64,000 nucleotides of DNA, from NCBI GenBank assembly GCA_963727825.1, contig CAVSHO010000007.1, forward strand, positions 64,001 through 128,000, given 5' to 3'. Under the pieces are notes generated by a model that saw only the letters and a list, made by a program, of their open reading frames with translations, was not told the DNA's origin and did no database searches. Below are positions 27,741-48,132 of the stretch, piece after piece; position 1 is the first letter of the stretch; each line of letters opens with the position of its first letter. Position numbers and translations under genes: made by a program. The DNA is from Ignavibacteriota bacterium (GTDB taxonomy: Bacteria > Bacteroidota > Ignavibacteria > UBA10030).

Positions 27741-29558
27741 ACGTCTTATAAAAGTCTTTATAGCGCCTTAGTTACTCTCGTTATTACGTTATTTGCATGC
27801 GCTTATGGCGATAATAATATTCTAACTAATCCAGGATTTGAAAGAGGAAAGAACGGCTGGTTCGATCGGACTTGTGCAATTGAACCTGTATCATCACCGG
27901 TTCACAGTGGTACTGGTGCTATGAAGGTCGTTAATAGACTAATGAATTGGCAGGGAATAAAACAATCGGTGTTCGGTAAATTGGTACAAGGGAAAATCTA
28001 TAAAGTTTCGGGGTGGGTAAGACTCGACAATGCAAAAAGCGATACGGTCGCTATATCTTTCGAACAGCAAGATGACAGCGGTACAAAGTATATTGGTGTA
28101 GCGCGGGCTGCCGCTTCGGATACTAACTGGACTTTGTTATCCGGCGAATTTACTTTAAAAGTTACAGGAACATTAGCAGTACTGGATGTGTACTTTGAAG
28201 GCCCTGTGTCAGGTGTTAACTTTTATGTTGATGATGCGAGTGTATTCGGTCCCGAGGTTGATGCTCCGAAGGTAATACCTGCTGATCCCAACGGAAAAGG
28301 TATAATAGATGTCAACACACGATATCAAAAAATTGAAGGCTTCGGTGCTTCAGGAGCTTGGCATACAAAAGAATTAGTAAATCATAAGAAGAAGGACGAG
28401 CTGTATAATTTGCTCTTCAAAGAACTTGGCCTCGATATATTCCGTATAGGCAATTATTACGATATAGATTCAGTTTCCTTCAATGAGACGATGGAAATAG
28501 CCAGATGCGGTGAATCCGCTCTAAAGAGAAATTTAAAGATTATGATATCATCGTGGTCGCCTCCGCCTTACATGAAAAGCAACGGAAAAATAATCGGTGG
28601 AACTCTGAAAAAGAAAAACAGAAAATTTGTCTATGATGAATTTGCGGAATGGTGGACTAAAAGCGTAATTGCCTGTACAAAAGCGGGTGTAAAGATAGAT
28701 TATATAAATATACAGAATGAGACTGACTATGAAGCTCCATGGAATTCATGTGTTTTTTCTCCTTCAGAAAATGTTGATACAAACATTGCCGCCTATAACA
28801 AAGCTTTCGAAGCAGTCTGGCAAAAAATGAACGCTTCAATGGGTTCGAACATGCCGAAAATGCTTGCTCCGGAAACATCCAGTTTAGGCAATGCTAAAAA
28901 GTACATAGAATGTTTAAGCAACCCATCCCATATCTATGCTTATGCTACACATCTCTACGATTGCAGTGGATGCGGTTCCGCTCCCGACAGGTTTATTCCA
29001 AGTATGGGCAGCTTCAATAATTTTGTCGTGCAGCATATCAACAAGCCGATATTTCAGACAGAGTTCGAAGACGGACCCAGCCTATGGACAAATGCAATCA
29101 GCGCAGCATTAGTGATACATAATGCTTTGACCGTGGAAAAAGTATCCGCTTATTTATACTGGGATTTATTCTGGGGTCCGGGAACAGCTCTGGTCAGCAT
29201 GAACGATTCAACCTCATATACCATTAAACCGGCATATTATACTTTCAAGCAATATTCAGCGTTTATAGATGCTGATTGGCAGCGCGTGGAAGCATCGACC
29301 GACAACACCGGTCTGAGGATTTCTGCATACATCAGTCCGGACAATAAAAAACTGACAGCAGTTATTATAAATACTACTGATAGCACGAATATTTCTTTTA
29401 ATCTATCTGTCAATAATTTCATTATTTCCAAAGGTGAAATTTACAGATCGAGCCAGAATGAAAACTGCGCCCTGATCGGTAGTTATAACAGGAAAACTCC
29501 GTTGGAAATACCTGCAAATTCCGTTACTACCTTATCGTTAACTTACAATAAGAAGTAG
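27741..29558 (+). CDS. Secreted CBM4/9 + GH30 glycoside hydrolase (xylanase-like); start codon non-canonical or damaged
   Basis: Frame open from 27687; signal peptide plus NILTNPGFE (CBM_4_9) upstream of the called ATG 27921; GH30 motifs YQKIEGFGAS, SSWSPP, IQNE, FQTE, AYLYW. Confidence 0.8.
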   Translation, partial: TSYKSLYSALVTLVITLFACAYGDNNILTNPGFERGKNGWFDRTCAIEPVSSPVHSGTGAMKVVNRLMNWQGIKQSVFGKLVQGKIYKVSGWVRLDNAKSDTVAISFEQQDDSGTKYIGVARAAASDTNWTLLSGEFTLKVTGTLAVLDVYFEGPVSGVNFYVDDASVFGPEVDAPKVIPADPNGKGIIDVNTRYQKIEGFGASGAWHTKELVNHKKKDELYNLLFKELGLDIFRIGNYYDIDSVSFNETMEIARCGESALKRNLKIMISSWSPPPYMKSNGKIIGGTLKKKNRKFVYDEFAEWWTKSVIACTKAGVKIDYINIQNETDYEAPWNSCVFSPSENVDTNIAAYNKAFEAVWQKMNASMGSNMPKMLAPETSSLGNAKKYIECLSNPSHIYAYATHLYDCSGCGSAPDRFIPSMGSFNNFVVQHINKPIFQTEFEDGPSLWTNAISAALVIHNALTVEKVSAYLYWDLFWGPGTALVSMNDSTSYTIKPAYYTFKQYSAFIDADWQRVEASTDNTGLRISAYISPDNKKLTAVIINTTDSTNISFNLSVNNFIISKGEIYRSSQNENCALIGSYNRKTPLEIPANSVTTLSLTYNKK

Positions 29559-29623
29559 ATAGTTAGTTAATGACCGTGAATAAAGTTCAGCAAAAGCAGT
29601 GATTACTTGCCATAACTTTACCG

Positions 29624-29652
29624 TTGCGATGCGAGACATTCATTCGTATATT
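29624..29652 (+). promoter_or_regulatory. Sigma70-type promoter upstream of the tRNA-Ser cluster
   Basis: TTGCGA-17 bp-TATATT. Confidence 0.5.
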
Positions 29653-29854
29653 TTAATATATGTCGTAAAAAAATATTACCTCGTAGAAGTTGGCGTTGAA
29701 AGTTCTCAGTATTAGAAGTTTTGTCTCTCTCGGCGATTTTATTCTGGTCGATATGAAAAGCTGTTCAATAAGGTGATCAGTGAAGTAATCAGTAAACACT
29801 AATCACTTGTGACACGATAGAAAAATAAGTGGCAAAAATAAAAGTATTTAACCT

Positions 29855-29970
29855 GGAGAGCTGGCAGAACGGTCCGTCGTCATCGCTGTGCGATGACGGA
29901 CGAGATCTCGTTCCGCTAAAAGCGGAACGGACTATTGCATCCCGACATAAAGTCGGGACGGACGTAAGCC
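29855..29970 (+). pseudogene. Degenerate 5' copy of tRNA-Ser(TGA) interrupted by palindromic inserts
   Basis: GGAGAGCTGGCAGAACGG (29855-72) | insert | CTATTGCA (29932-39) | insert remnant | CGTAAGCC (29963-70); all three pieces match the intact gene at 29996. Confidence 0.85.
29873..29931. mobile_element. 59 bp double-hairpin insert I1
   Basis: TC-CGTCGTCATCGC-TGT-GCGATGACGGACG-AGATCT-CGTTCCGCT-AAA-AGCGGAACG-GA at GG^CTA of the D-loop. Confidence 0.8.
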
Positions 29971-29995
29971 AATAAGTTGGAAAGAAATAGTATTT

Positions 29996-30078
29996 GGAGA
30001 GCTGGCAGAACGGCTATTGCACCAGTCTTGAAAACTGGCGGGCGTAAGCCCTTGGGGGTTCGAATCCCTCGCTCTCCG
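29996..30078 (+). tRNA. tRNA-Ser(TGA)
   Basis: GGAGAGC acceptor stem pairs with GCTCTCC; anticodon arm CCAGT-CTTGAAA-ACTGG; long variable arm; GTTCGAATCC T-loop; CCA not encoded. Confidence 0.96.
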
Positions 30079-30144
30079 CAATTATAATTATCAAATTGCT
30101 TTTCGGGGTTCTTTTTACTTAATTAAATCAAACAAATTCAGCTC

Positions 30145-30227
30145 GGAGAGATGGCCGAGTGGTCCGTTCCGATCTGTGATCGGAACGAGATCTCGTCCCG
30201 ACAAAGTCGGGACGGACTGAAGGCGCA
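30145..30227 (+). pseudogene. Degenerate 5' copy of tRNA-Ser(GCT) interrupted by insert I2
   Basis: GGAGAGATGGCCGAGTGG | insert | CTGAAGGCGCA; the leader AATTCAGCTC (30135-44) is also repeated at 30493-30502. Confidence 0.85.
30163..30216. mobile_element. 54 bp double-hairpin insert I2
   Basis: TC-CGTTCCGATC-TGT-GATCGGAACG-AGATCT-CGTCCCGAC-AAA-GTCGGGACG-GA at GG^CTG of the D-loop. Confidence 0.8.
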
Positions 30228-30230
30228 AAG

Positions 30231-30470
30231 ATGAAAGTTTTTGTTTATATCTTGTTCTCTGAAAAGTTTGGAAAGACTTATGTTGGTCAGACTTCTGATA
30301 TTCAGAAAAGAATTACCATGCATAATGCTGGGCGAGTTAAGTCTACAAAAAGATATGCTCCTTGGAAGTTAATTCATTCAGAAGAATTTGATTCAAGGGG
30401 TGAAGCTATGGCAAAGGAAGAATGGTATAAATCTTCTTCTGGAAGGAAAAGTATACAAAAGTTTATTTAA
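30231..30470 (+). CDS. Small GIY-YIG endonuclease 1 (UPF0213/SLX1-like)
   Basis: FVYIL..TYVGQT..KRITMHN..STKRYAPWKL..EAMAKE; conserved Tyr, Arg, His and Glu present. Confidence 0.9.
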   Translation: MKVFVYILFSEKFGKTYVGQTSDIQKRITMHNAGRVKSTKRYAPWKLIHSEEFDSRGEAMAKEEWYKSSSGRKSIQKFI

Positions 30471-30502
30471 TTAATTTTTGAAATTGTAACATAATTCAGC
30501 TC

Positions 30503-30591
30503 GGAGAGATGGCCGAGTGGCTGAAGGCACAGGTTTGCTAAACCTGCATAGTGGGTAACTGCTATCGAGGGTTCGAATCCCTCTCTCTCCG
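30503..30591 (+). tRNA. tRNA-Ser(GCT)
   Basis: GGAGAGA/TCTCTCC acceptor stem; anticodon arm CAGGT-TTGCTAA-ACCTG; long variable arm; GTTCGAATCC T-loop. Confidence 0.96.
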
Positions 30592-30599
30592 CTTGTGAG

Positions 30600-30923
30600 A
30601 TGAGTTATTTCGTTTATCTGCTTTGGTCGATTCGATCAAAACGCACATATGTCGGACAAACGGATGATATCGATAATCGCCTAAAACGACATAATGCAGG
30701 ATATATTCGATCCACTAAAGCATATCGTCCTTGGGTATTGGTCCATATAGAATTGTATTCAACTCGTTCAGAAGCGATGAAGAGAGAAATATGGTTGAAG
30801 AGCCCGACAGGTAGGAAATCGATAGTTAAGATTATTGGAAAATGGCAAGAGAAAGGTTTGTCCGTTCCGTTGTCAGAGACAACGGAACGAGATCGCGATC
30901 CCGCAGGAGCGGGATCGGACTAA
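30600..30923 (+). CDS. Small GIY-YIG endonuclease 2 (UPF0213/SLX1-like)
   Basis: FVYLL..TYVGQT..NRLKRHN..STKAYRPWVL..EAMKRE; C-terminal tail reads through the tRNA duplicate and insert I3. Confidence 0.9.
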   Translation: MSYFVYLLWSIRSKRTYVGQTDDIDNRLKRHNAGYIRSTKAYRPWVLVHIELYSTRSEAMKREIWLKSPTGRKSIVKIIGKWQEKGLSVPLSETTERDRDPAGAGSD

Positions 30924-30973
30924 ACCTGCATAGTGGGTAACTGCTATCGAGGGTTCGAATCCCTCTCTCTCCG
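30854..30973 (+). pseudogene. 3' copy of tRNA-Ser(GCT) with an insert in the anticodon
   Basis: AGGTTTG | insert | CTAAACCTGCATAGTGGGTAACTGCTATCGAGGGTTCGAATCCCTCTCTCTCCG; identical to 30531-30591 once the insert is removed. Confidence 0.88.
30861..30919. mobile_element. 59 bp double-hairpin insert I3
   Basis: TC-CGTTCCGTTGTC-AGA-GACAACGGAACG-AGATCG-CGATCCCGC-AGGA-GCGGGATCG-GA at G^CT of the anticodon. Confidence 0.8.
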
Positions 30974-30981
30974 CTGGTAAG

Positions 30982-31038
30982 ATGAGTTATTTTGTATATC
31001 TGCTAAGGTCGATACGATCAAAGCAAACATATGTTGGA
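30982..31038 (+). pseudogene. 5' remnant of a third GIY-YIG gene
   Basis: ATGAGTTATTTTGTATATCTGCTAAGGTCGATACGATCAAAGCAAACATATGTTGGA (MSYFVYLLRSIRSKQTYVG), a diverged copy of 30600-30656. Confidence 0.8.
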
Positions 31039-31102
31039 CTAAACCTGCATAGTGGGTAACTGCTATCGAGGGTTCTCCCGGCAAGTCGGGACTCTCTCTC
31101 TG
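31039..31102 (+). pseudogene. Second 3' copy of tRNA-Ser(GCT) with part of the T-arm replaced by a hairpin
   Basis: CTAAACCTG...GAGGGTTC, then TCCCGGCAAGTCGGGA (31076-91) in place of GAATCC, then CTCTCTCTCTG. Confidence 0.8.
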
Positions 31103-31163
31103 CAAAACTTTATTCCATGAAAATATGGAATATAGTTTTACTGGCAAGTCCTGAAAGATGGAT

Positions 31164-31194
31164 AAGCGTCTCATATCTTCGGGACGCTTTTTTT
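31164..31194 (+). terminator. Rho-independent terminator after the tRNA/GIY-YIG cluster
   Basis: AAGCGTCTC-loop-GGGACGCTT followed by a T-tract. Confidence 0.65.
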
Positions 31195-31216
31195 GTATTA
31201 GAACAGGTTATCGGAA

Positions 31217-32668
31217 ATGGGAAATCAAATTCGCGTTCGTTTTGCACCAAGCCCTACAGGATATTTACACGTAGGCGGGTTACGCACAGCATTATATAAT
31301 TATCTATTTGCAAAACACTTTGGCGGTAAATTCATTCTTCGCATTGAAGATACTGATCAATCGCGCAAAGTTGAAGGTGCGGTTGAAAATTTGATCGAAA
31401 CTCTGAAATGGTCTGGAATTGAATATGATGAAGGTCCTGACCGTGATGGTGGTCGTGGTCCGTATGTGCAATCTCAACGTTTAGAATTGTACCGCAAGTA
31501 TGCACAAGAACTCATCAGCAAGGATAAAGCGTATCATTGTTTCTGTACATCTGAACGATTGCAGGAAGTTCGTAAAAAACAATTGGCCGCAAAACTTTCT
31601 CCTTCGTACGACCGCCATTGCCGAAATGTATCTCGAGAAGAAGCGGAACGCCGAGTTGCAGCAGGTGAGCAAAATGTCATCCGCATGAAAATACCACTCG
31701 AAGGTGAATTATCATTTGATGATGTTATTCGCGGCAAAGTAACCATTTCTCATAAGATGATAGACGATCAAGTGCTTATCAAGTCAGATGGATTCCCGAC
31801 ATATCACCTTGCAGTTGTTGTCGATGATCATTTAATGGGAATTACACACGTCATTCGCGGCGAAGAGTGGCTGTCGAGTGTCCCGAAACATATTCTGATA
31901 TATAACTATTTCGGATGGGAATTGCCGGTGCTTGCGCATCTTCCATTGTTATTGAATCCTGATAAATCTAAACTCAGCAAGCGTCAAGGAGATGTAGCGG
32001 TAGAAGATTATCGTGCCAAAGGATATCTTAAGGAAGCGATCGTGAATTTTATTGCATTCCTCGGTTGGAATCCAGGCGATGAGCGGGAAATATTTTTAAT
32101 GGAACAACTTATTCAAGAATTCACTTTAGATCGTGTCGGCAAGTCCGGTGCAGTATTCAATGTCGAAAAATTAAATTGGCTCAATCAACAGCATATCAAA
32201 CTTAAATCGAACGAAGAACTTGCTCAACTCATCAAACCGGATCTTCAAGCTGCCCAATTAGCGAATATAAATAATGATTATTTTCTAAAAGTAATCAGTT
32301 TATTGAAAGAACGGCTGAACTTTCCGAAGAATTTTATTGAGATGAGCAAGTACTTCTTCCGTGACCCGGAATCTTTCGATGAAGCAGGATTGAAGAAATA
32401 TTGGGAACCGGAGACAAGCGATCAACTAAAATTGCTCGCTGATCGTTTTGAGGCGCTTCTGGAATTTTCTCATGCTTCCGTCGAAGCAGCTTTACGGCAA
32501 TTAGCCGAAGAGCTCCAGATTAAGCCAACTAAACTTATCCATCCTGCACGGCTGGCGCTTTCAGGAAGAACTATAGGCCCCGGATTATTTGAAATGATAG
32601 AATTACTTGGGAAAGAAACTGTCGTTCGGCGTTTGCGCCGCGCGATAGAAAAATTCAAAGCGATGTAA
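31217..32668 (+). CDS. gltX: Glutamate--tRNA ligase
   Basis: RFAPSPTGYLHVGG (HIGH), RIEDTD, PTYHLA, IRGEEW and KLSKR motifs. Confidence 0.97.
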   Translation: MGNQIRVRFAPSPTGYLHVGGLRTALYNYLFAKHFGGKFILRIEDTDQSRKVEGAVENLIETLKWSGIEYDEGPDRDGGRGPYVQSQRLELYRKYAQELISKDKAYHCFCTSERLQEVRKKQLAAKLSPSYDRHCRNVSREEAERRVAAGEQNVIRMKIPLEGELSFDDVIRGKVTISHKMIDDQVLIKSDGFPTYHLAVVVDDHLMGITHVIRGEEWLSSVPKHILIYNYFGWELPVLAHLPLLLNPDKSKLSKRQGDVAVEDYRAKGYLKEAIVNFIAFLGWNPGDEREIFLMEQLIQEFTLDRVGKSGAVFNVEKLNWLNQQHIKLKSNEELAQLIKPDLQAAQLANINNDYFLKVISLLKERLNFPKNFIEMSKYFFRDPESFDEAGLKKYWEPETSDQLKLLADRFEALLEFSHASVEAALRQLAEELQIKPTKLIHPARLALSGRTIGPGLFEMIELLGKETVVRRLRRAIEKFKAM

Positions 32669-47410: not shown

Positions 47411-48132
47411 CCTTCCGAGGTCTCGATAGGTCTTAAATGACCTTCGGAAGGTTCTTGGGAGGTATCACAAAACATGAAATATAAGGACCAATCATACTAC
47501 CATATTTACAATAGGGGCGCGCATAAAGAGAATATTTTCTTCTCCGATGAGCATTACCTTCGGTGTCTGAACCTTTTAGAGAAATATTCCACAAAATATT
47601 CGGTATCGATCATTGCTTATTGTCTTATGCCCAATCATTATCATTTGGTAATTCGGCAAAATGAGAACGGTTCAATCTCTCGTTGCATTCAAACTACGTT
47701 CAATGCGTGTTCACAAACGGTTAATCTGATGGAGCAGCACAGCGGTACCTTATTCCAGGGAAAGGCAAAGGCAAAACAGATCGATTCGGAATCCTCTCTG
47801 ATACAGGTAATTCGTTACGTGCATCTTAATCCGGTAAGAGCCGGATTTGTGCAAAGACCGGAAGATTGGCACTTTTCTGATTATCTCGATTGGATTCTGT
47901 CACCTTCCGAAGGTCACGGTAGATCTGAATTGACCTTCGGAAGGTCATCAATGTGTAATACTTATTTTGCAAATGTGGAAGATTATAAGCAATTTGTCGG
48001 AGGAATACCAGACGATGCAGAAAGAGAATGACCTTCAAAAGTTTTTATTTGATGAAAAATAATGTCCGTTACCTTCCGAAGGCCAGTTACCTTCCGAAGG
48101 ACACAGCGAACCGAACAGTTCCTTCGGAAGGT
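47409..48132. repeat. REP cluster with core (A)CCTTC(C/G)GAAGG(T) around and inside the RAYT gene
   Basis: Copies at 47409-22, 47439-53, 47902-16, 47931-45, 48068-82, 48086-100 and 48121-32, arranged mainly as inverted pairs. Confidence 0.8.
47474..48031 (+). mobile_element. REP-associated tyrosine transposase (RAYT, Y1 HUH family)
   Basis: YYHIYNRG, AYCLMPNHYHL (HUH), G.LFQG and YVHLNPVRAG motifs; flanked by REPs. Confidence 0.88.

Follow-up and report, generated by a model that had tools for sequence, protein, structure and literature searches.

The double-hairpin element that interrupts tRNA-derived sequence at three places of the window, i.e., of the whole stretch of 64,000 nucleotides that was analyzed, is probably an orphan, lineage-restricted and non-coding palindromic DNA repeat, mobile and similar to REP doublets or to the double-hairpin elements (DHE) of mitochondria. 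The evidence comprises the anatomy of the element, its exact filled and empty sites, the covariation within its stems, its distribution and the dead-copy context of its tRNA hosts. The element would move as a discrete unit entering the DNA at G^C (mostly at G^CT or G^CA) without duplication of the target, and it would prefer foldable DNA, namely loops of tRNA-derived sequence, attC arms in integrons and, within other hairpin repeats, their linkers or loops. We infer that single-stranded DNA in its folded form is the substrate of insertion and that hits in working tRNAs are lost by selection: a cell would not survive the interruption of a working tRNA gene, and copies would therefore persist only in spare truncated tRNA duplicates. 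The pairing would be maintained at the level of the DNA.

Two unlike hairpins make up the element; AGATCT links them, and TC and GA form the outer ends, resulting in the scaffold TC-CGTC..GACG-AGATCT-CGTC..GACG-GA. The three copies in the window, termed I1, I2 and I3, are 54–59 nt double hairpins sharing this one scaffold, as described in the initial annotation, and the single bulge ascribed to I1 is present in its fold. The fold of each copy shows two strong hairpins and reaches a minimum free energy of −34.3, −34.2 and −38.9 kcal/mol and a z-score of −5.35, −4.92 and −7.55 for I1, I2 and I3, respectively, and none of 200 dinucleotide shuffles folds as well. In the family as a whole the element is 46–64 nt long, its hairpins start 2 nt inside each element end, and each half is a hairpin of 17–29 nt with 7–13 pairs. 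The spacer measures 6 nt in all copies (AGATCT, AGATCG or CGATCG), and all copies are heterodimers. CGTC represents pairs 1–4 of the stem, with C-G and G-C present in all 87 unique hairpins, T-A in 84 and C-G in 63. In searches with a covariance model true elements score 36–81 bits; I1 reaches 55.1 bits (E 7.5e-11; 39 bits on the opposite strand), I2 76.8 bits and I3 40.1 bits.

The proposal that structure rather than stem sequence is conserved was borne out by abundant compensatory changes. In 113 distinct rows, 98.6% of 2005 stem cells are paired compared to 72.7% in shuffles, a value that none of 500 shuffles reaches, and double-sided changes affect 477 cells compared to 107 in the shuffles. 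Covariation was found for 15 of 19 pairs, while slid controls are paired at 19–42% only; a MAFFT alignment, in which the stems are misaligned, is excluded from these statistics. The pairing is almost purely of the Watson-Crick type: G-U accounts for just 18 of the 2005 cells, and at pair positions 7–12 of the 87 unique hairpins 90–95% are Watson-Crick and 0–3% G-U pairs, C-A and A-C mismatches being no rarer than G-T. Moreover, every element scores on both strands in the covariance model. Because of this nearly pure Watson-Crick pairing and since both strands fold alike, the element is a DNA-level palindrome, neither an RNA nor an intron.

The surroundings of the three copies are listed in Table 1. 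ARAGORN calls only the two intact tRNA-Ser genes within the locus, and the three carriers of I1, I2 and I3 are truncated tRNA fragments, not tRNA genes. The dead copy of tRNA-Ser(TGA), which blast shows as a fragment, lacks the T arm, and its anticodon arm is replaced by a foreign hairpin; the same replacement is present in two relatives (G028 and G020), and hairpins of the same type occur within other dead tRNA copies of the genome that holds the window (G000). The idea that this hairpin, taken as 29940–29962, represents the right half of an element was abandoned; in G028 it is followed by GGGC, not by GGAC. For tRNA-Ser(GCT), about 10 bases upstream of the gene are duplicated as well, and the truncated 5′ copy is therefore a tandem duplication, in which I2 ends 14 nt upstream of the start codon of GIY-YIG gene 1. 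The frame of GIY-YIG gene 2 continues across tRNA-derived sequence and I3, the domain ending near residue 72. The remnant of a further copy of this gene joins the next tRNA fragment at GGAC, and within that fragment a 17-nt GC hairpin (31076–31092) substitutes part of the T-loop, a place at which relatives carry other hairpins. The best reading is that the tRNA-Ser duplicates of the window arose by tandem duplication around two small free-standing GIY-YIG genes. The initial annotation had regarded the hosts of the element as tRNAs; after excision only one of 70 carriers is complete for ARAGORN, an intact gene lies beside that one, and the hosts are thus dead fragments.

Table 1. Features of the tRNA-Ser/GIY-YIG block in the window.
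Feature	Position	Strand	Description
Truncated tRNA-Ser(TGA) duplicate	29855..29970	+	Positions 1-18, I1, 19-26, foreign hairpin, part of variable arm
I1, double-hairpin element	29873..29931	.	59 nt; at AACGG^CTATTG in D-loop of dead tRNA-Ser(TGA) copy
Single GC-rich hairpin, TCCCGAC..GTCGGGA type	29940..29959	.	In place of anticodon arm of the dead copy
Intact tRNA-Ser(TGA)	29996..30079	+	ARAGORN; Rfam tRNA model 54.1 bits
Truncated 5′ tRNA-Ser(GCT) duplicate	30145..30228	+	Positions 1-18, I2, 19-30; directly upstream of GIY-YIG gene 1
I2, double-hairpin element	30163..30216	.	54 nt; at GAGTGG^CTGAAGG in D-loop
GIY-YIG gene 1	30231..30470	+	79 aa, catalytic domain only; PF01541 E 4.3e-17
Intact tRNA-Ser(GCT)	30503..30592	+	ARAGORN; Rfam 60.7 bits
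GIY-YIG gene 2	30600..30923	+	107-aa open frame; PF01541 E 2.9e-17
Truncated 3′ tRNA-Ser(GCT) duplicate	30854..30974	+	Positions 29-35, I3, 36-90
I3, double-hairpin element	30861..30919	.	59 nt; at GGTTTG^CTAAACC between anticodon bases 34 and 35
Remnant of GIY-YIG-2 copy	30982..31039	+	First ~19 codons; HMM match to profile positions 1-18, E 7.9e-6
Second truncated 3′ tRNA-Ser(GCT) duplicate	31040..31103	+	From position 37; blast 37/37 identical, positions 36-72
Terminator-like hairpin and T-run	31164..31189	+	Closes the whole tRNA/GIY-YIG block

This arrangement bears on the possibility that the element works as RNA, either as a processing or stabilizing structure (end protection, cleavage signal) or as an intervening sequence removed from tRNA-like transcripts, which we regard as quite improbable. 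As a single terminator-like site closes the block, the elements are probably transcribed together with the tRNAs (the terminator-like hairpin is also conserved in relatives without cassettes); moreover, they closely flank reading frames, in relatives they are located between co-oriented genes, and REPs are reported to stabilize upstream mRNA (PMC3733652, in part). Contigs from RNA libraries span I1 (29854–29988) and I2 (30152–30349) with one to two differences each. However, these contigs retain I1 and I2 with no splicing there, although such libraries may contain DNA, and the scarcity of G-U pairs together with mismatches showing no strand bias speaks against selection acting on a single transcribed strand. 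As fragments, the carriers are not tRNAs in need of repair, the hairpins of the element have no T-run, and Rfam, applied to 29000–32000 with E up to 1, matched tRNAs and tRNA-derived look-alikes only and none of the elements. For a 250-bp repeat found in G024, Rfam likewise gave no match (E up to 0.1). No joint in the contigs of the sequencing runs skips exactly I1, I2 or I3, but contigs drop rare variants, and this result does not bear on excision; any single run contained at most 27% of the sampled words, and all runs were available as contigs. A tRNA intron of the group I or bulge-helix-bulge type was rejected in view of the single ARAGORN-complete carrier, the missing match to an Rfam intron and the retention of I1 and I2 in the RNA-library contigs.

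The insertions are precise. As claimed initially, excision of I1, I2 and I3 restores the tRNA sequence exactly and without target-site duplication, and all three are flanked by G^CT. Upon removal of I1, 29855–29872 joined to 29932–29939 equals the start of the intact tRNA-Ser(TGA), and after removal of I2, 30145–30162 joined to 30217–30224 equals the start of the intact tRNA-Ser(GCT). Removal of I3 joins 30854–30860 to 30920–30974, giving positions 29–90 of the intact tRNA-Ser(GCT), with 55 of 55 matches by blast for positions 36–90. A further insertion in G000 that can be compared with an intact tRNA lies at GCGG^CTGTTAA in a tRNA-Asn (G000:C12). Not a single base of the target is duplicated at these four sites with an intact reference, nor at the empty attC and I1 sites.

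Comparison of relatives revealed the same sites empty, filled or filled differently. The I1 site is empty, i.e., the D-loop is uninterrupted, in three homologous dead copies, two of them in G028 and one in G020, and it holds a different element at locus L112. The I2 site carries elements with different stems at L042, L066, L080 and L088, and the I3 site is filled in G024 (three copies), G025, G030, G033 and G014 with newly combined hairpin modules. At L118, in a record titled Ignavibacterium album, a tRNA-Ser(GCT) fragment bears two elements. Six elements at TTTG^CTAAA in five genomes mix four left and three right hairpin types, and hairpin modules have probably been swapped between copies at the conserved center. 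Many sites at one tRNA position are common to different genera, which could reflect old inheritance and turnover of the stems, not repeated insertion.

The initial annotation had named tRNA loops as the target and a flanking G and C as an extension of the terminal inverted repeat. Only 16 of 45 unique sites are tRNA-derived DNA, and integron attC sites and other hairpin repeats, within which the element nests, are also hit, so that the target is wider than tRNA loops. At least one of the flanking G and C was found at all 45 sites and both at 26; this part of the description holds with the restriction that the two are not both present everywhere. G at position −1 occurs at 35 and C at position +1 at 36 of the 45 sites, and a fixed tetranucleotide is not present. 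G^CT was found at 15–16 of 44–45 sites and G^CA at 9 of 44. Furthermore, 19 of 44 sites lie inside a stem of at least four pairs, compared to 16% of control positions. Empty attC sites of the form GCCGCAG^CTTAGCGC number 32 in G024 and 31 in G025, with 1 and 0 hits for the reversed-pattern controls, and in the arrays that were read this site is occupied by seven of the eight element copies at locus L147 (the eighth lies in a gene end) and by three to five copies at each of the other loci. The integron integrase genes beside these arrays score above the curated cut-off. The spread among attC copies could result from cassette duplication or gene conversion, not from transposition.

The expectation of more copies, both in the genome and in relatives, was confirmed. 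A covariance model built from a seed of seven copies finds six places in the 3.1-Mb genome at E ≤ 3e-9, the next match having an E of 0.28; of the same family, 55 of 86 genomes, belonging to 21 of 33 genera, contain the element according to the model. A family-wide pattern search matched 63 of the 86 genomes, with about zero matches for the reversed-pattern control; within the window a loose pattern gave 26 matches (6.9 expected), of which only I1, I2 and I3 are double hairpins. The strand-counted matches range from 1 to 46 per genome across the family, corresponding to approximately 1–23 elements. In a sample of the class the element is present in 9 of 151 genomes including G000; leaving G000 aside, it occurs in six of seven genomes of family f1, in two of three of f2 and in none of the other 24 families. 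In the class sample the element is restricted to two related bacterial families. Four genomes (G026, G031, G027 and G029) show a plain arrangement of tRNA-Ser(TGA), tRNA-Ser(GCT) and gltX, and cassette and element are absent there. One contig of X3, a very short one, connects 30594 with 31133 through 31 letters of other sequence, and it may represent a relative without the GIY-YIG-2 block.

The distribution also bears on the view that the elements are immobile and represent in-place scars of break repair in tRNA genes, formed by fold-back synthesis or template switching. The locus is rich in rearrangement junctions, as exemplified by the GGAC microhomology at 31036–31039, and unrelated GC palindromes are numerous in dead tRNA copies, the tRNA-Leu(CAG) fragments for instance showing a perfect one of 20 nt. 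Moreover, the perfect pairing of quasi-palindromes is restored by template switching even when selection is absent. Against this, the single scaffold TC-CG..CG-AGATCT-CG..CG-GA recurs across the 21 genera, and near-identical copies reside at many unrelated loci in G023, G024, G025 and G080, while repair in place is unable to yield the same 54-nt sequence at different sites. These dispersed copies already largely refute the scar explanation, which we consider extremely improbable.

Both GIY-YIG proteins of the window score above the cut-off of PF01541, and their closest solved structures are those of UPF0213 (1zg2 and 1ywl). An SLX1-like nuclease had been suggested initially; the proteins match UPF0213 GIY-YIG domains, have sizes of 79 and about 85–107 aa and are devoid of a second domain. 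The NCBIfam model for group I intron endonucleases gives 24.7 bits, below its cut-off of 56 bits. The cassettes are variably present or absent among species of one genus, and cassettes orthologous to that of GIY-YIG gene 2 were found in G024, G025, G030 and G033.

It is conceivable, though in our view unlikely, that the element belongs to these cassettes, being either a recognized structured DNA or an insert at the cut site of the spare tRNA copy; in the latter version, which is akin to the mark against re-cutting that the initial annotation considered, the spare copy would be immune to cutting and the cassette would be harder to delete by recombination between tRNA repeats. A GIY-YIG frame lies within 1.5 kb of 17 of 65 element copies, compared to about 1% expected by a rough estimate from 13 such genes in 3.1 Mb, and to this extent the association put forward in the initial annotation stands; the other 48 copies are without such a frame. 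D-loop elements are positioned 14–35 nt upstream of GIY-YIG-1-type genes in the window and at L052 and L080, and an anticodon element follows directly 3′ of GIY-YIG-2-type genes in G000, G024, G025, G030, G033 and G014. Five of the six copies in G000 lie in dead tRNA copies associated with GIY-YIG genes, and each of the ten tRNA-adjacent GIY-YIG genes of G000 has a tRNA copy interrupted by a GC hairpin. This regularity of hairpins at all ten loci goes beyond what passive tolerance predicts and counts against the orphan-repeat reading. In addition, a 13-copy array in G018 carries a D-loop mini-hairpin with the same TCCG..CGGA ends, and five of the six family genomes without a GIY-YIG match are also without the element. 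A precedent is the phage GIY-YIG enzyme SegB, which cleaves within tRNA genes at the motif RAWTSGAAC and causes tRNA segments to be amplified in tandem (PMC13096335, in part); that this motif reads as T-loop DNA is our own reading and is not taken from that source.

Other observations oppose membership in the cassettes. Dozens of element copies are located in integron attC sites with no GIY-YIG gene nearby, some tandem arrays of GIY-YIG genes occur without the element, and the numbers diverge between genomes: G031 has 19 GIY-YIG matches but about one element, and G025 has three matches but about 14 elements. Two genomes, G066 and the 100% complete G086, contain the element but no GIY-YIG match with the query used. 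Furthermore, the intact tRNA beside each cassette would retain the presumed cut site, so that the locus would stay open to cutting even if an insert made the spare copy immune. The notion that the element is the partner of this GIY-YIG clade, as REP is to RAYT, fails on the distribution, with GIY-YIG relatives in 104 but the element in 9 of the 151 class genomes. The link between element and GIY-YIG genes is one of neighborhood and not of partnership.

Combining both ideas, the element might be a bacterial counterpart of DHE and a transposase-orphan, taken up by folded single-stranded DNA (tRNA loops, attC arms) at G^CT, with tRNA-homing GIY-YIG cassettes that have come to rely on this element and on related GC hairpins for inactivating the spare tRNA copy they create. 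We regard this joint scenario as doubtful. If true, disabling of the spare copy would stop re-cutting as well as loss of the cassette by repeat recombination, and tRNA gene, free-standing nuclease and structure-seeking mini-element would form a three-way system.

For the preferred reading, i.e., an orphan palindromic repeat, a mover was searched for among Y1_Tnp genes, of which G000 has about ten. No element above 22 bits was found within approximately 1.5 kb of Y1_Tnp genes at eight loci of G000 and 30 loci of five element-rich relatives. The window Y1_Tnp gene is flanked by 44-nt two-hairpin repeats, the spacer of which likewise holds AGATCT or GGATCT, and the cognate repeats of the Y1 genes constitute a different family of the ACCTTCCGAAGGT type. 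Among the 86 family genomes, 38 have both the element and the RAYT-like clade of the window, 17 the element only, 16 the gene only and 15 neither. RAYT as a demonstrated mover was rejected on this weak co-occurrence and on the absence of the element beside all 38 Y1_Tnp loci; an action of RAYT in trans is possible. An autonomous parent would show as isolated half-elements on either side of a gene; none turned up in a scan of G000.

Bacterial genomes commonly contain small palindromic repeats, whose mode of movement is known only for RAYT-associated REPs. Owing to its exact filled and empty sites, its simple and foldable G^C(T/A) target, its covariation at the DNA level and its confinement to two families, the family described here could serve as a model for the insertion of orphan hairpin repeats, and such a model would extend to the long-unexplained insertion of mitochondrial DHE. 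Bacteria would thus carry tiny structure-seeking repeats like those of fungal mitochondria. Moreover, small free-standing GIY-YIG genes sit in tandem partial tRNA duplications across a bacterial class (104 of 151 genomes sampled), representing a chromosomal counterpart of the SegB-driven tRNA amplification in phages reported in 2026 (PMC13096335, in part). Literature searches, with subscription journals and supplementary files outside their scope, where a description of the element may exist, yielded no paper on this element and none on small GIY-YIG genes in duplicated bacterial tRNA genes. For genome annotation, tRNA fragments bearing these inserts should be labeled neither as tRNA genes nor as introns.

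Several known systems share single features with the element. A MITE was rejected: the inverted ends TCCG/CGGA are present, but target-site duplications are absent at all sites with an intact or empty reference. PATE, which are derived from IS200/IS605, enter without duplication at the 3′ side of a tetra- or pentanucleotide of fixed sequence, and their subterminal hairpins are set back from the ends; in the element duplication is likewise absent, but conservation is limited to the G at −1 and the C at +1, and the hairpins start 2 nt from the ends. Rickettsia palindromic elements (RPE) measure approximately 100–150 bp and are tolerated inside working genes. Like RPE, which are named among the CGTC-type repeats (PMC3733652, in part), the element is a small palindrome inserting into genes including RNA genes with preservation of the surrounding sequence; unlike RPE it is 46–64 nt long and, as far as tRNA hosts are concerned, found in non-functional copies only.

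SegB of phages T4 and T6 is a free-standing GIY-YIG homing endonuclease encoded in a tRNA gene cluster (PMC13096335 and PMC2330249, both in part). The window similarly shows GIY-YIG genes among tRNA genes, and its tandem units of partial tRNA and GIY-YIG gene match the SegB-driven amplification. Unlike SegB, a phage enzyme with extra DNA-binding parts, the window proteins are chromosomal, consist of the domain only (79–107 aa) and are known from sequence; hairpin elements are not described together with SegB in the accessible part of PMC13096335.

The RAYT enzyme TnpA-REP acts on folded single-stranded hairpins and cuts at an adjoining CT (or CA) without target duplication, and the element resembles RAYT products in the folded hairpin, the CT/CA junction and the missing duplication (PMC8266576, in part). 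With REP doublets (BIME, REPIN) it shares short GC-rich palindromes that are arranged head to head across a short spacer and frequently form heterodimers, stem sequences that vary within the family and, in relatives, sites between co-oriented genes (PMC3733652, in part). Each half has the size of a REP-type hairpin-forming unit (20–40 bp), and the halves form an inverted dimer. As in CGTC-tagged REPs, which “apparently lack a dedicated transposase” (Di Nocera et al., 2013, PMC3733652, in part), the foot of the hairpin reads CGTC. However, the GTAG/CGTC REP families have an unpaired head, 8–9 bp stems starting with A-T and a CCA tail, while in the element CGTC is paired and unpaired head and CCA tail are absent. 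Precise insertion into tRNA-derived loops and attC sites is a feature of the element that the accessible part of PMC3733652 does not describe for REPs. Classical REPs occur in about 100 or more copies per genome, and the six copies in G000 and approximately 1–23 per genome in the family count against REP likeness; unlike REP/RAYT systems and REPtrons, none of the 38 Y1 loci is flanked by the element.

Mitochondrial double-hairpin elements were reportedly the subject of work by Paquin et al. in 2000. DHE of fungi and RHE of sponges are GC-rich, potentially mobile and composed of two adjacent stem-loops; they reside in intergenic regions and RNA genes and are kept in transcripts, their enzyme and function not being known (PMC10085805 and PMC2800124, both in part). 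By description, not by sequence, the element is like DHE, i.e., GC-rich, dispersed, potentially mobile and built of two adjacent stem-loops (PMC10085805, in part). The G^C target and the preference for tRNA-like and attC sites are features of the element that the accessible parts of PMC10085805 and PMC2800124 do not report for DHE and RHE. Finally, DHE and RHE belong to eukaryotic organelle genomes, whereas the element sits in a free-living bacterial lineage.

The three copies of the double-hairpin element, I1, I2 and I3, lie exactly at the positions of the initial annotation, and each interrupts one truncated copy of a tRNA gene (see table). When the inserts are cut out, the intact gene is recovered without any duplicated or missing base, in agreement with the precise insertion described earlier. 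The description of the inserts stands, but the hosts are gene fragments and not tRNAs. The tRNA block is flanked by a glycosidase-like gene and gltX, and around its two intact tRNA-Ser genes four truncated copies of the same genes and two small GIY-YIG genes are found. As short upstream or downstream stretches were duplicated along with the tRNA, the truncated copies represent tandem duplications. The terminator-like hairpin closing the block is kept in relatives with or without cassettes, i.e., GIY-YIG genes with a partial tRNA copy. The open frame of GIY-YIG gene 2 reads through I3, and in the relative G024 an element (L147:11963-12016) follows closely on the T9SS sorting domain of a GH31 glycosidase, within the final ~35 codons of its frame; the element is therefore able to sit in reading-frame tails.

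Features of the tRNA block and the Y1 transposase gene (window coordinates)
Feature	Position	Remark
Truncated Ser(TGA) copy, 5' two-thirds	29855-29970	
I1	29873-29931	AACGG^CTATTG, D-loop of truncated Ser(TGA) copy
tRNA-Ser(TGA), intact	29996-30079	ARAGORN + Rfam
Truncated Ser(GCT) copy, first 30 bases	30145-30228	directly upstream of GIY-YIG gene 1
I2	30163-30216	GAGTGG^CTGAAGG, D-loop of truncated Ser(GCT) copy
GIY-YIG gene 1	30231-30470	79 aa
tRNA-Ser(GCT), intact	30503-30592	ARAGORN + Rfam
GIY-YIG gene 2	from 30600 onward	
Truncated Ser(GCT) copy, positions 29-90	30854-30974	directly after GIY-YIG gene 2
I3	30861-30919	GGTTTG^CTAAACC, between anticodon bases 34 and 35
Further truncated 3' copy	31040-31103	behind 19-codon remnant of third GIY-YIG copy
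Terminator-like hairpin with T-run	31164-31189	single; closes the tRNA block
RAYT-like Y1 transposase gene	47489-47824 (region 47434-48130)	best NCBIfam match REP-associated tyrosine transposase, below cut-off

The scaffold consists of TC, a CG-stem-loop-stem-CG hairpin, a centre AGATCT (or AGATCG, CGATCG), a second CG-stem-loop-stem-CG hairpin and GA. I1-I3 each form two hairpins (z -4.9 to -7.6), and 0 of 200 shuffles fold as well. The covariation of the stems, noted before from three copies, is borne out by a covariance model for which seven copies of 54 nt were used. The alignment made with this model has 113 distinct rows, from 127 matches in which about 64 elements are represented by both strands. 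Of its 2005 cells, 98.6% are paired compared to 72.7% after shuffling; changes on both sides affect 477 cells compared to 107 after shuffling, and 15 of 19 pairs covary, while sliding the partners lowers pairing to 19-42%; being fitted to the model, the alignment leans towards structure. A tally independent of the model, counting pairs from the foot in 87 unique hairpins, gives 90-95% Watson-Crick pairs at positions 7-12, where pairing is not forced by the hairpin filter. G-U pairs make up only 18 of 2005 cells (0-3% per position), and an RNA selected on one strand would show many, which argues for a DNA palindrome rather than an RNA. C-A and A-C mismatches are at least as frequent as G-T in the hairpin tally and both strands of every element score with the model. 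Pairing is thus kept at the level of the DNA; a DNA palindrome, having to pair on both strands, would not be rich in G-U. A reading as intron was dropped: the hosts are gene fragments, Rfam holds no match to the elements, and contigs of one RNA library run across I1 and I2 without splicing, a weak observation as DNA may be present in such libraries.

The covariance model finds six places in the window's own 3.1 Mb genome (G000). Three of these are I1-I3, two lie just upstream of the intact tRNA-Asn(GTT) gene, where its 5' half forms a tandem duplication of 123 bp (site GCGG^CTGTTAA), and one is degenerate and outside tRNA sequence (C11:299759). Dead copies, i.e., truncated tRNA gene duplicates, hold five of the six, with G^CT flanks in all five. 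Further copies occur in relatives: within the window's family, 55 of 86 genomes, from 21 of 33 genera, give matches to the model, with ~1 to 23 copies per genome. In an even sample of the class (151 genomes) the model matches nine including G000; the others are six of seven genomes of family f1 and two of three of family f2, with none in 24 other families. Among public records, the strict pattern is found mainly in MAGs named as Ignavibacteria, Ignavibacteriota, Ignavibacteriaceae, Melioribacteraceae or Bacteroidota; it also occurs, with hairpins that pass the hairpin filter, in a few records of Chitinophagales, Omnitrophota and Lentisphaerota, and several high-GC records with the pattern fail this filter.

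Target sites were tabulated for 65 elements from 100-odd loci of relatives and for the window's own copies, resulting in 45 unique sites. The element is preceded by G at 35 and followed by C at 36 of these; 26 are G^C, and G before or C after is present in 45/45, so that the suggested G^C preference holds. Read on either strand, G^CT accounts for 15 and G^CA for nine of 44 sites. A position within a stem of at least four pairs is seen for 19/44 sites compared to 16% of control positions, which include G^C positions. The suggested tRNA-loop context applies in part: 16/45 junctions match tRNA across the join, located in D-loops of Ser, Val and Met tRNAs, in anticodon loops of Ser, Asn, Asp and Pro tRNAs, and in T-loops of Ala, Ser and Leu tRNAs. 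After excision, only one of 70 elements leaves a tRNA that is whole for ARAGORN, and this is adjoined by an intact gene of that type; for about half of the elements an intact tRNA lies within 1 kb. The others are placed in other repeats, either in the loop of a ATTCCCGA..TCGGGAAT hairpin (G023) or in the linker of other two-hairpin elements (G080).

Three comparisons of filled and empty sites show that the element is a discrete unit. The first is that of intact genes and dead copies inside G000. Secondly, the dead Ser(TGA) copy is present twice in G028 and once in G020, with the same foreign hairpin replacing the anticodon arm; its D-loop is uninterrupted (cagaacggctattgca) where G000 carries I1, so I1 arrived after the dead copy had formed. 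Thirdly, in G024 and G025 the element occurs at GCCGCAG^CTTAGCGC within a ~250-bp repeat separating co-oriented, unrelated genes. This repeat is read as a putative attC site of chromosomal integrons because it starts with a ..CTAAC box, ends with GTTAGGC and adjoins genes scoring 426-453 bits on the integron-integrase model (cut-off 265). The empty form is found 32 times in G024 and 31 times in G025 (reversed-pattern controls: 1 and 0), and filled forms about 15-20 times per genome. In our reading of the folded attC, the element site lies in an arm rather than in a loop. Integron integrase genes above the curated cut-off are present in G000, G024 and G025 (loci G000:C11:29893-30834, L140-L147 and L191-L200); in the latter two genomes they adjoin long arrays in which ~250-bp attC-like repeats separate unrelated genes of one orientation, among them T9SS-tailed hydrolases and methyltransferases. 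These arrays are therefore read as sedentary chromosomal integrons of the lineage. Moreover, the orthologous site TTTG^CTAAA after GIY-YIG gene 2 is filled in G000, G024 (two forms), G025, G030 and G033 by elements with new combinations of left and right hairpins: G024a has the G000 left hairpin with a different right one, and G024b the G030 left hairpin with the right one of G024a. This implies recombination between copies at the conserved centre or replacement of halves.

The initial annotation proposed a GIY-YIG nuclease as partner of the element. The two window proteins consist of the GIY-YIG domain alone (Pfam E about 1e-17), the nearest solved structures being uncharacterised UPF0213 proteins. 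Ten of the 13 GIY-YIG matches in G000 abut tRNA genes, and all ten lie beside a partial copy of the neighbouring tRNA with a loop or arm interrupted or replaced by a GC-rich hairpin; this is the element in two cases and otherwise mostly a TCCCG..CGGGA-type hairpin, or a perfect 20-nt palindrome. Such genes are located on C1, C8, C10, C11, C12 and C13. At the position of the tRNA block, G026, the closest relative at this locus, has a plain tRNA pair and no cassette, like G031, G027 and G029, and the GIY-YIG-2 cassette is present in G024, G025, G030 and G033. Tandem arrays of partial tRNA and GIY-YIG gene reach 14 copies in G031 (L151, C2:364700-369156; 299 bp each) and 13 in G018 (L152, C18:92600-97716; 368 bp each), the copies of each being 99% alike. 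The tRNA-Met repeats of the latter are called tRNA by ARAGORN despite a 15-nt hairpin filling the D-loop, and similar arrays occur across the class, e.g., in G109, G160 and G206. This matches a result of 2026 on phage SegB, a GIY-YIG enzyme that cleaves within tRNA genes and causes segments of tRNA plus segB to be amplified in tandem (PMC13096335).

An association is indeed seen: a GIY-YIG frame lies within 1.5 kb of 17/65 elements, far above the roughly 1% expected, two cassette types hold the element at fixed positions, and of the six family genomes with no GIY-YIG match, five are free of the element as well. The partnership itself is not proven, however, since 48/65 elements and the attC copies have no such gene nearby, G086 and G066 carry the element with no GIY-YIG match to the query used, copy numbers do not track each other, and the distributions differ (nuclease family in 104/151 class genomes, element in 9/151). 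We conclude that the cassettes serve as a habitat by providing tRNA-like DNA that is dead; the insert may be of use to them, but the evidence does not make them its mover.

A Y1 (RAYT) transposase would fit as mover by its chemistry, as these enzymes act on single-stranded hairpins, cleave at CT or CA and do not duplicate the target (PMC8266576). G000 has about ten Y1_Tnp genes, and the one in the window is flanked by its own 44-nt two-hairpin repeats, with ACCTTCCGAAGGT-type hairpins and a spacer with AGATCT or GGATCT, strikingly like the element in build (27 units and seven doublets in G000). The other Y1 genes have other private palindromes. However, at 38 Y1 loci inspected in six genomes the element is never adjacent, a scan of G000 gave no gene flanked by half-elements, and the element's co-occurrence with the window's Y1 clade in the family is weak (both 38, element only 17, gene only 16, neither 15).

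Other observations concern G000. Two tandem 346-bp units (C9:166610-167400) consist of a tRNA-Leu(CAG) 5' fragment and a GIY-YIG gene, and the D-arm of each fragment contains a palindrome of 20 nt without mismatch (CCTGCCTGCC/GGCAGGCAGG); its arms also delimit a nested insert in three of seven attC sites aligned from G024 (L147), and this looks like a second family of palindromic elements. Of two partial tRNA-Met copies upstream of the intact gene (C12:53375-53558), one has a structured D-loop insert of ~70 nt outside the double-hairpin family. Identical or near-identical 100-nt contexts on different contigs (C7:40682 and C8:190938; C4:3839, C5:3840 and C7:201385) are either repeats or redundant contigs, the assembly being rated at 6.55% contamination.

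As a summary, the original observation is real and richer than first described; searches of openly accessible article texts gave no description of the element. It is best filed among the small palindromic repeats, with a build like that of REP doublets or of the double-hairpin elements of mitochondria. As for the CGTC REPs (PMC3733652), no mover is assigned to it. It differs from RAYT-REP families in failing their defining tests, and both its target rule and its habitat are unusually clear.
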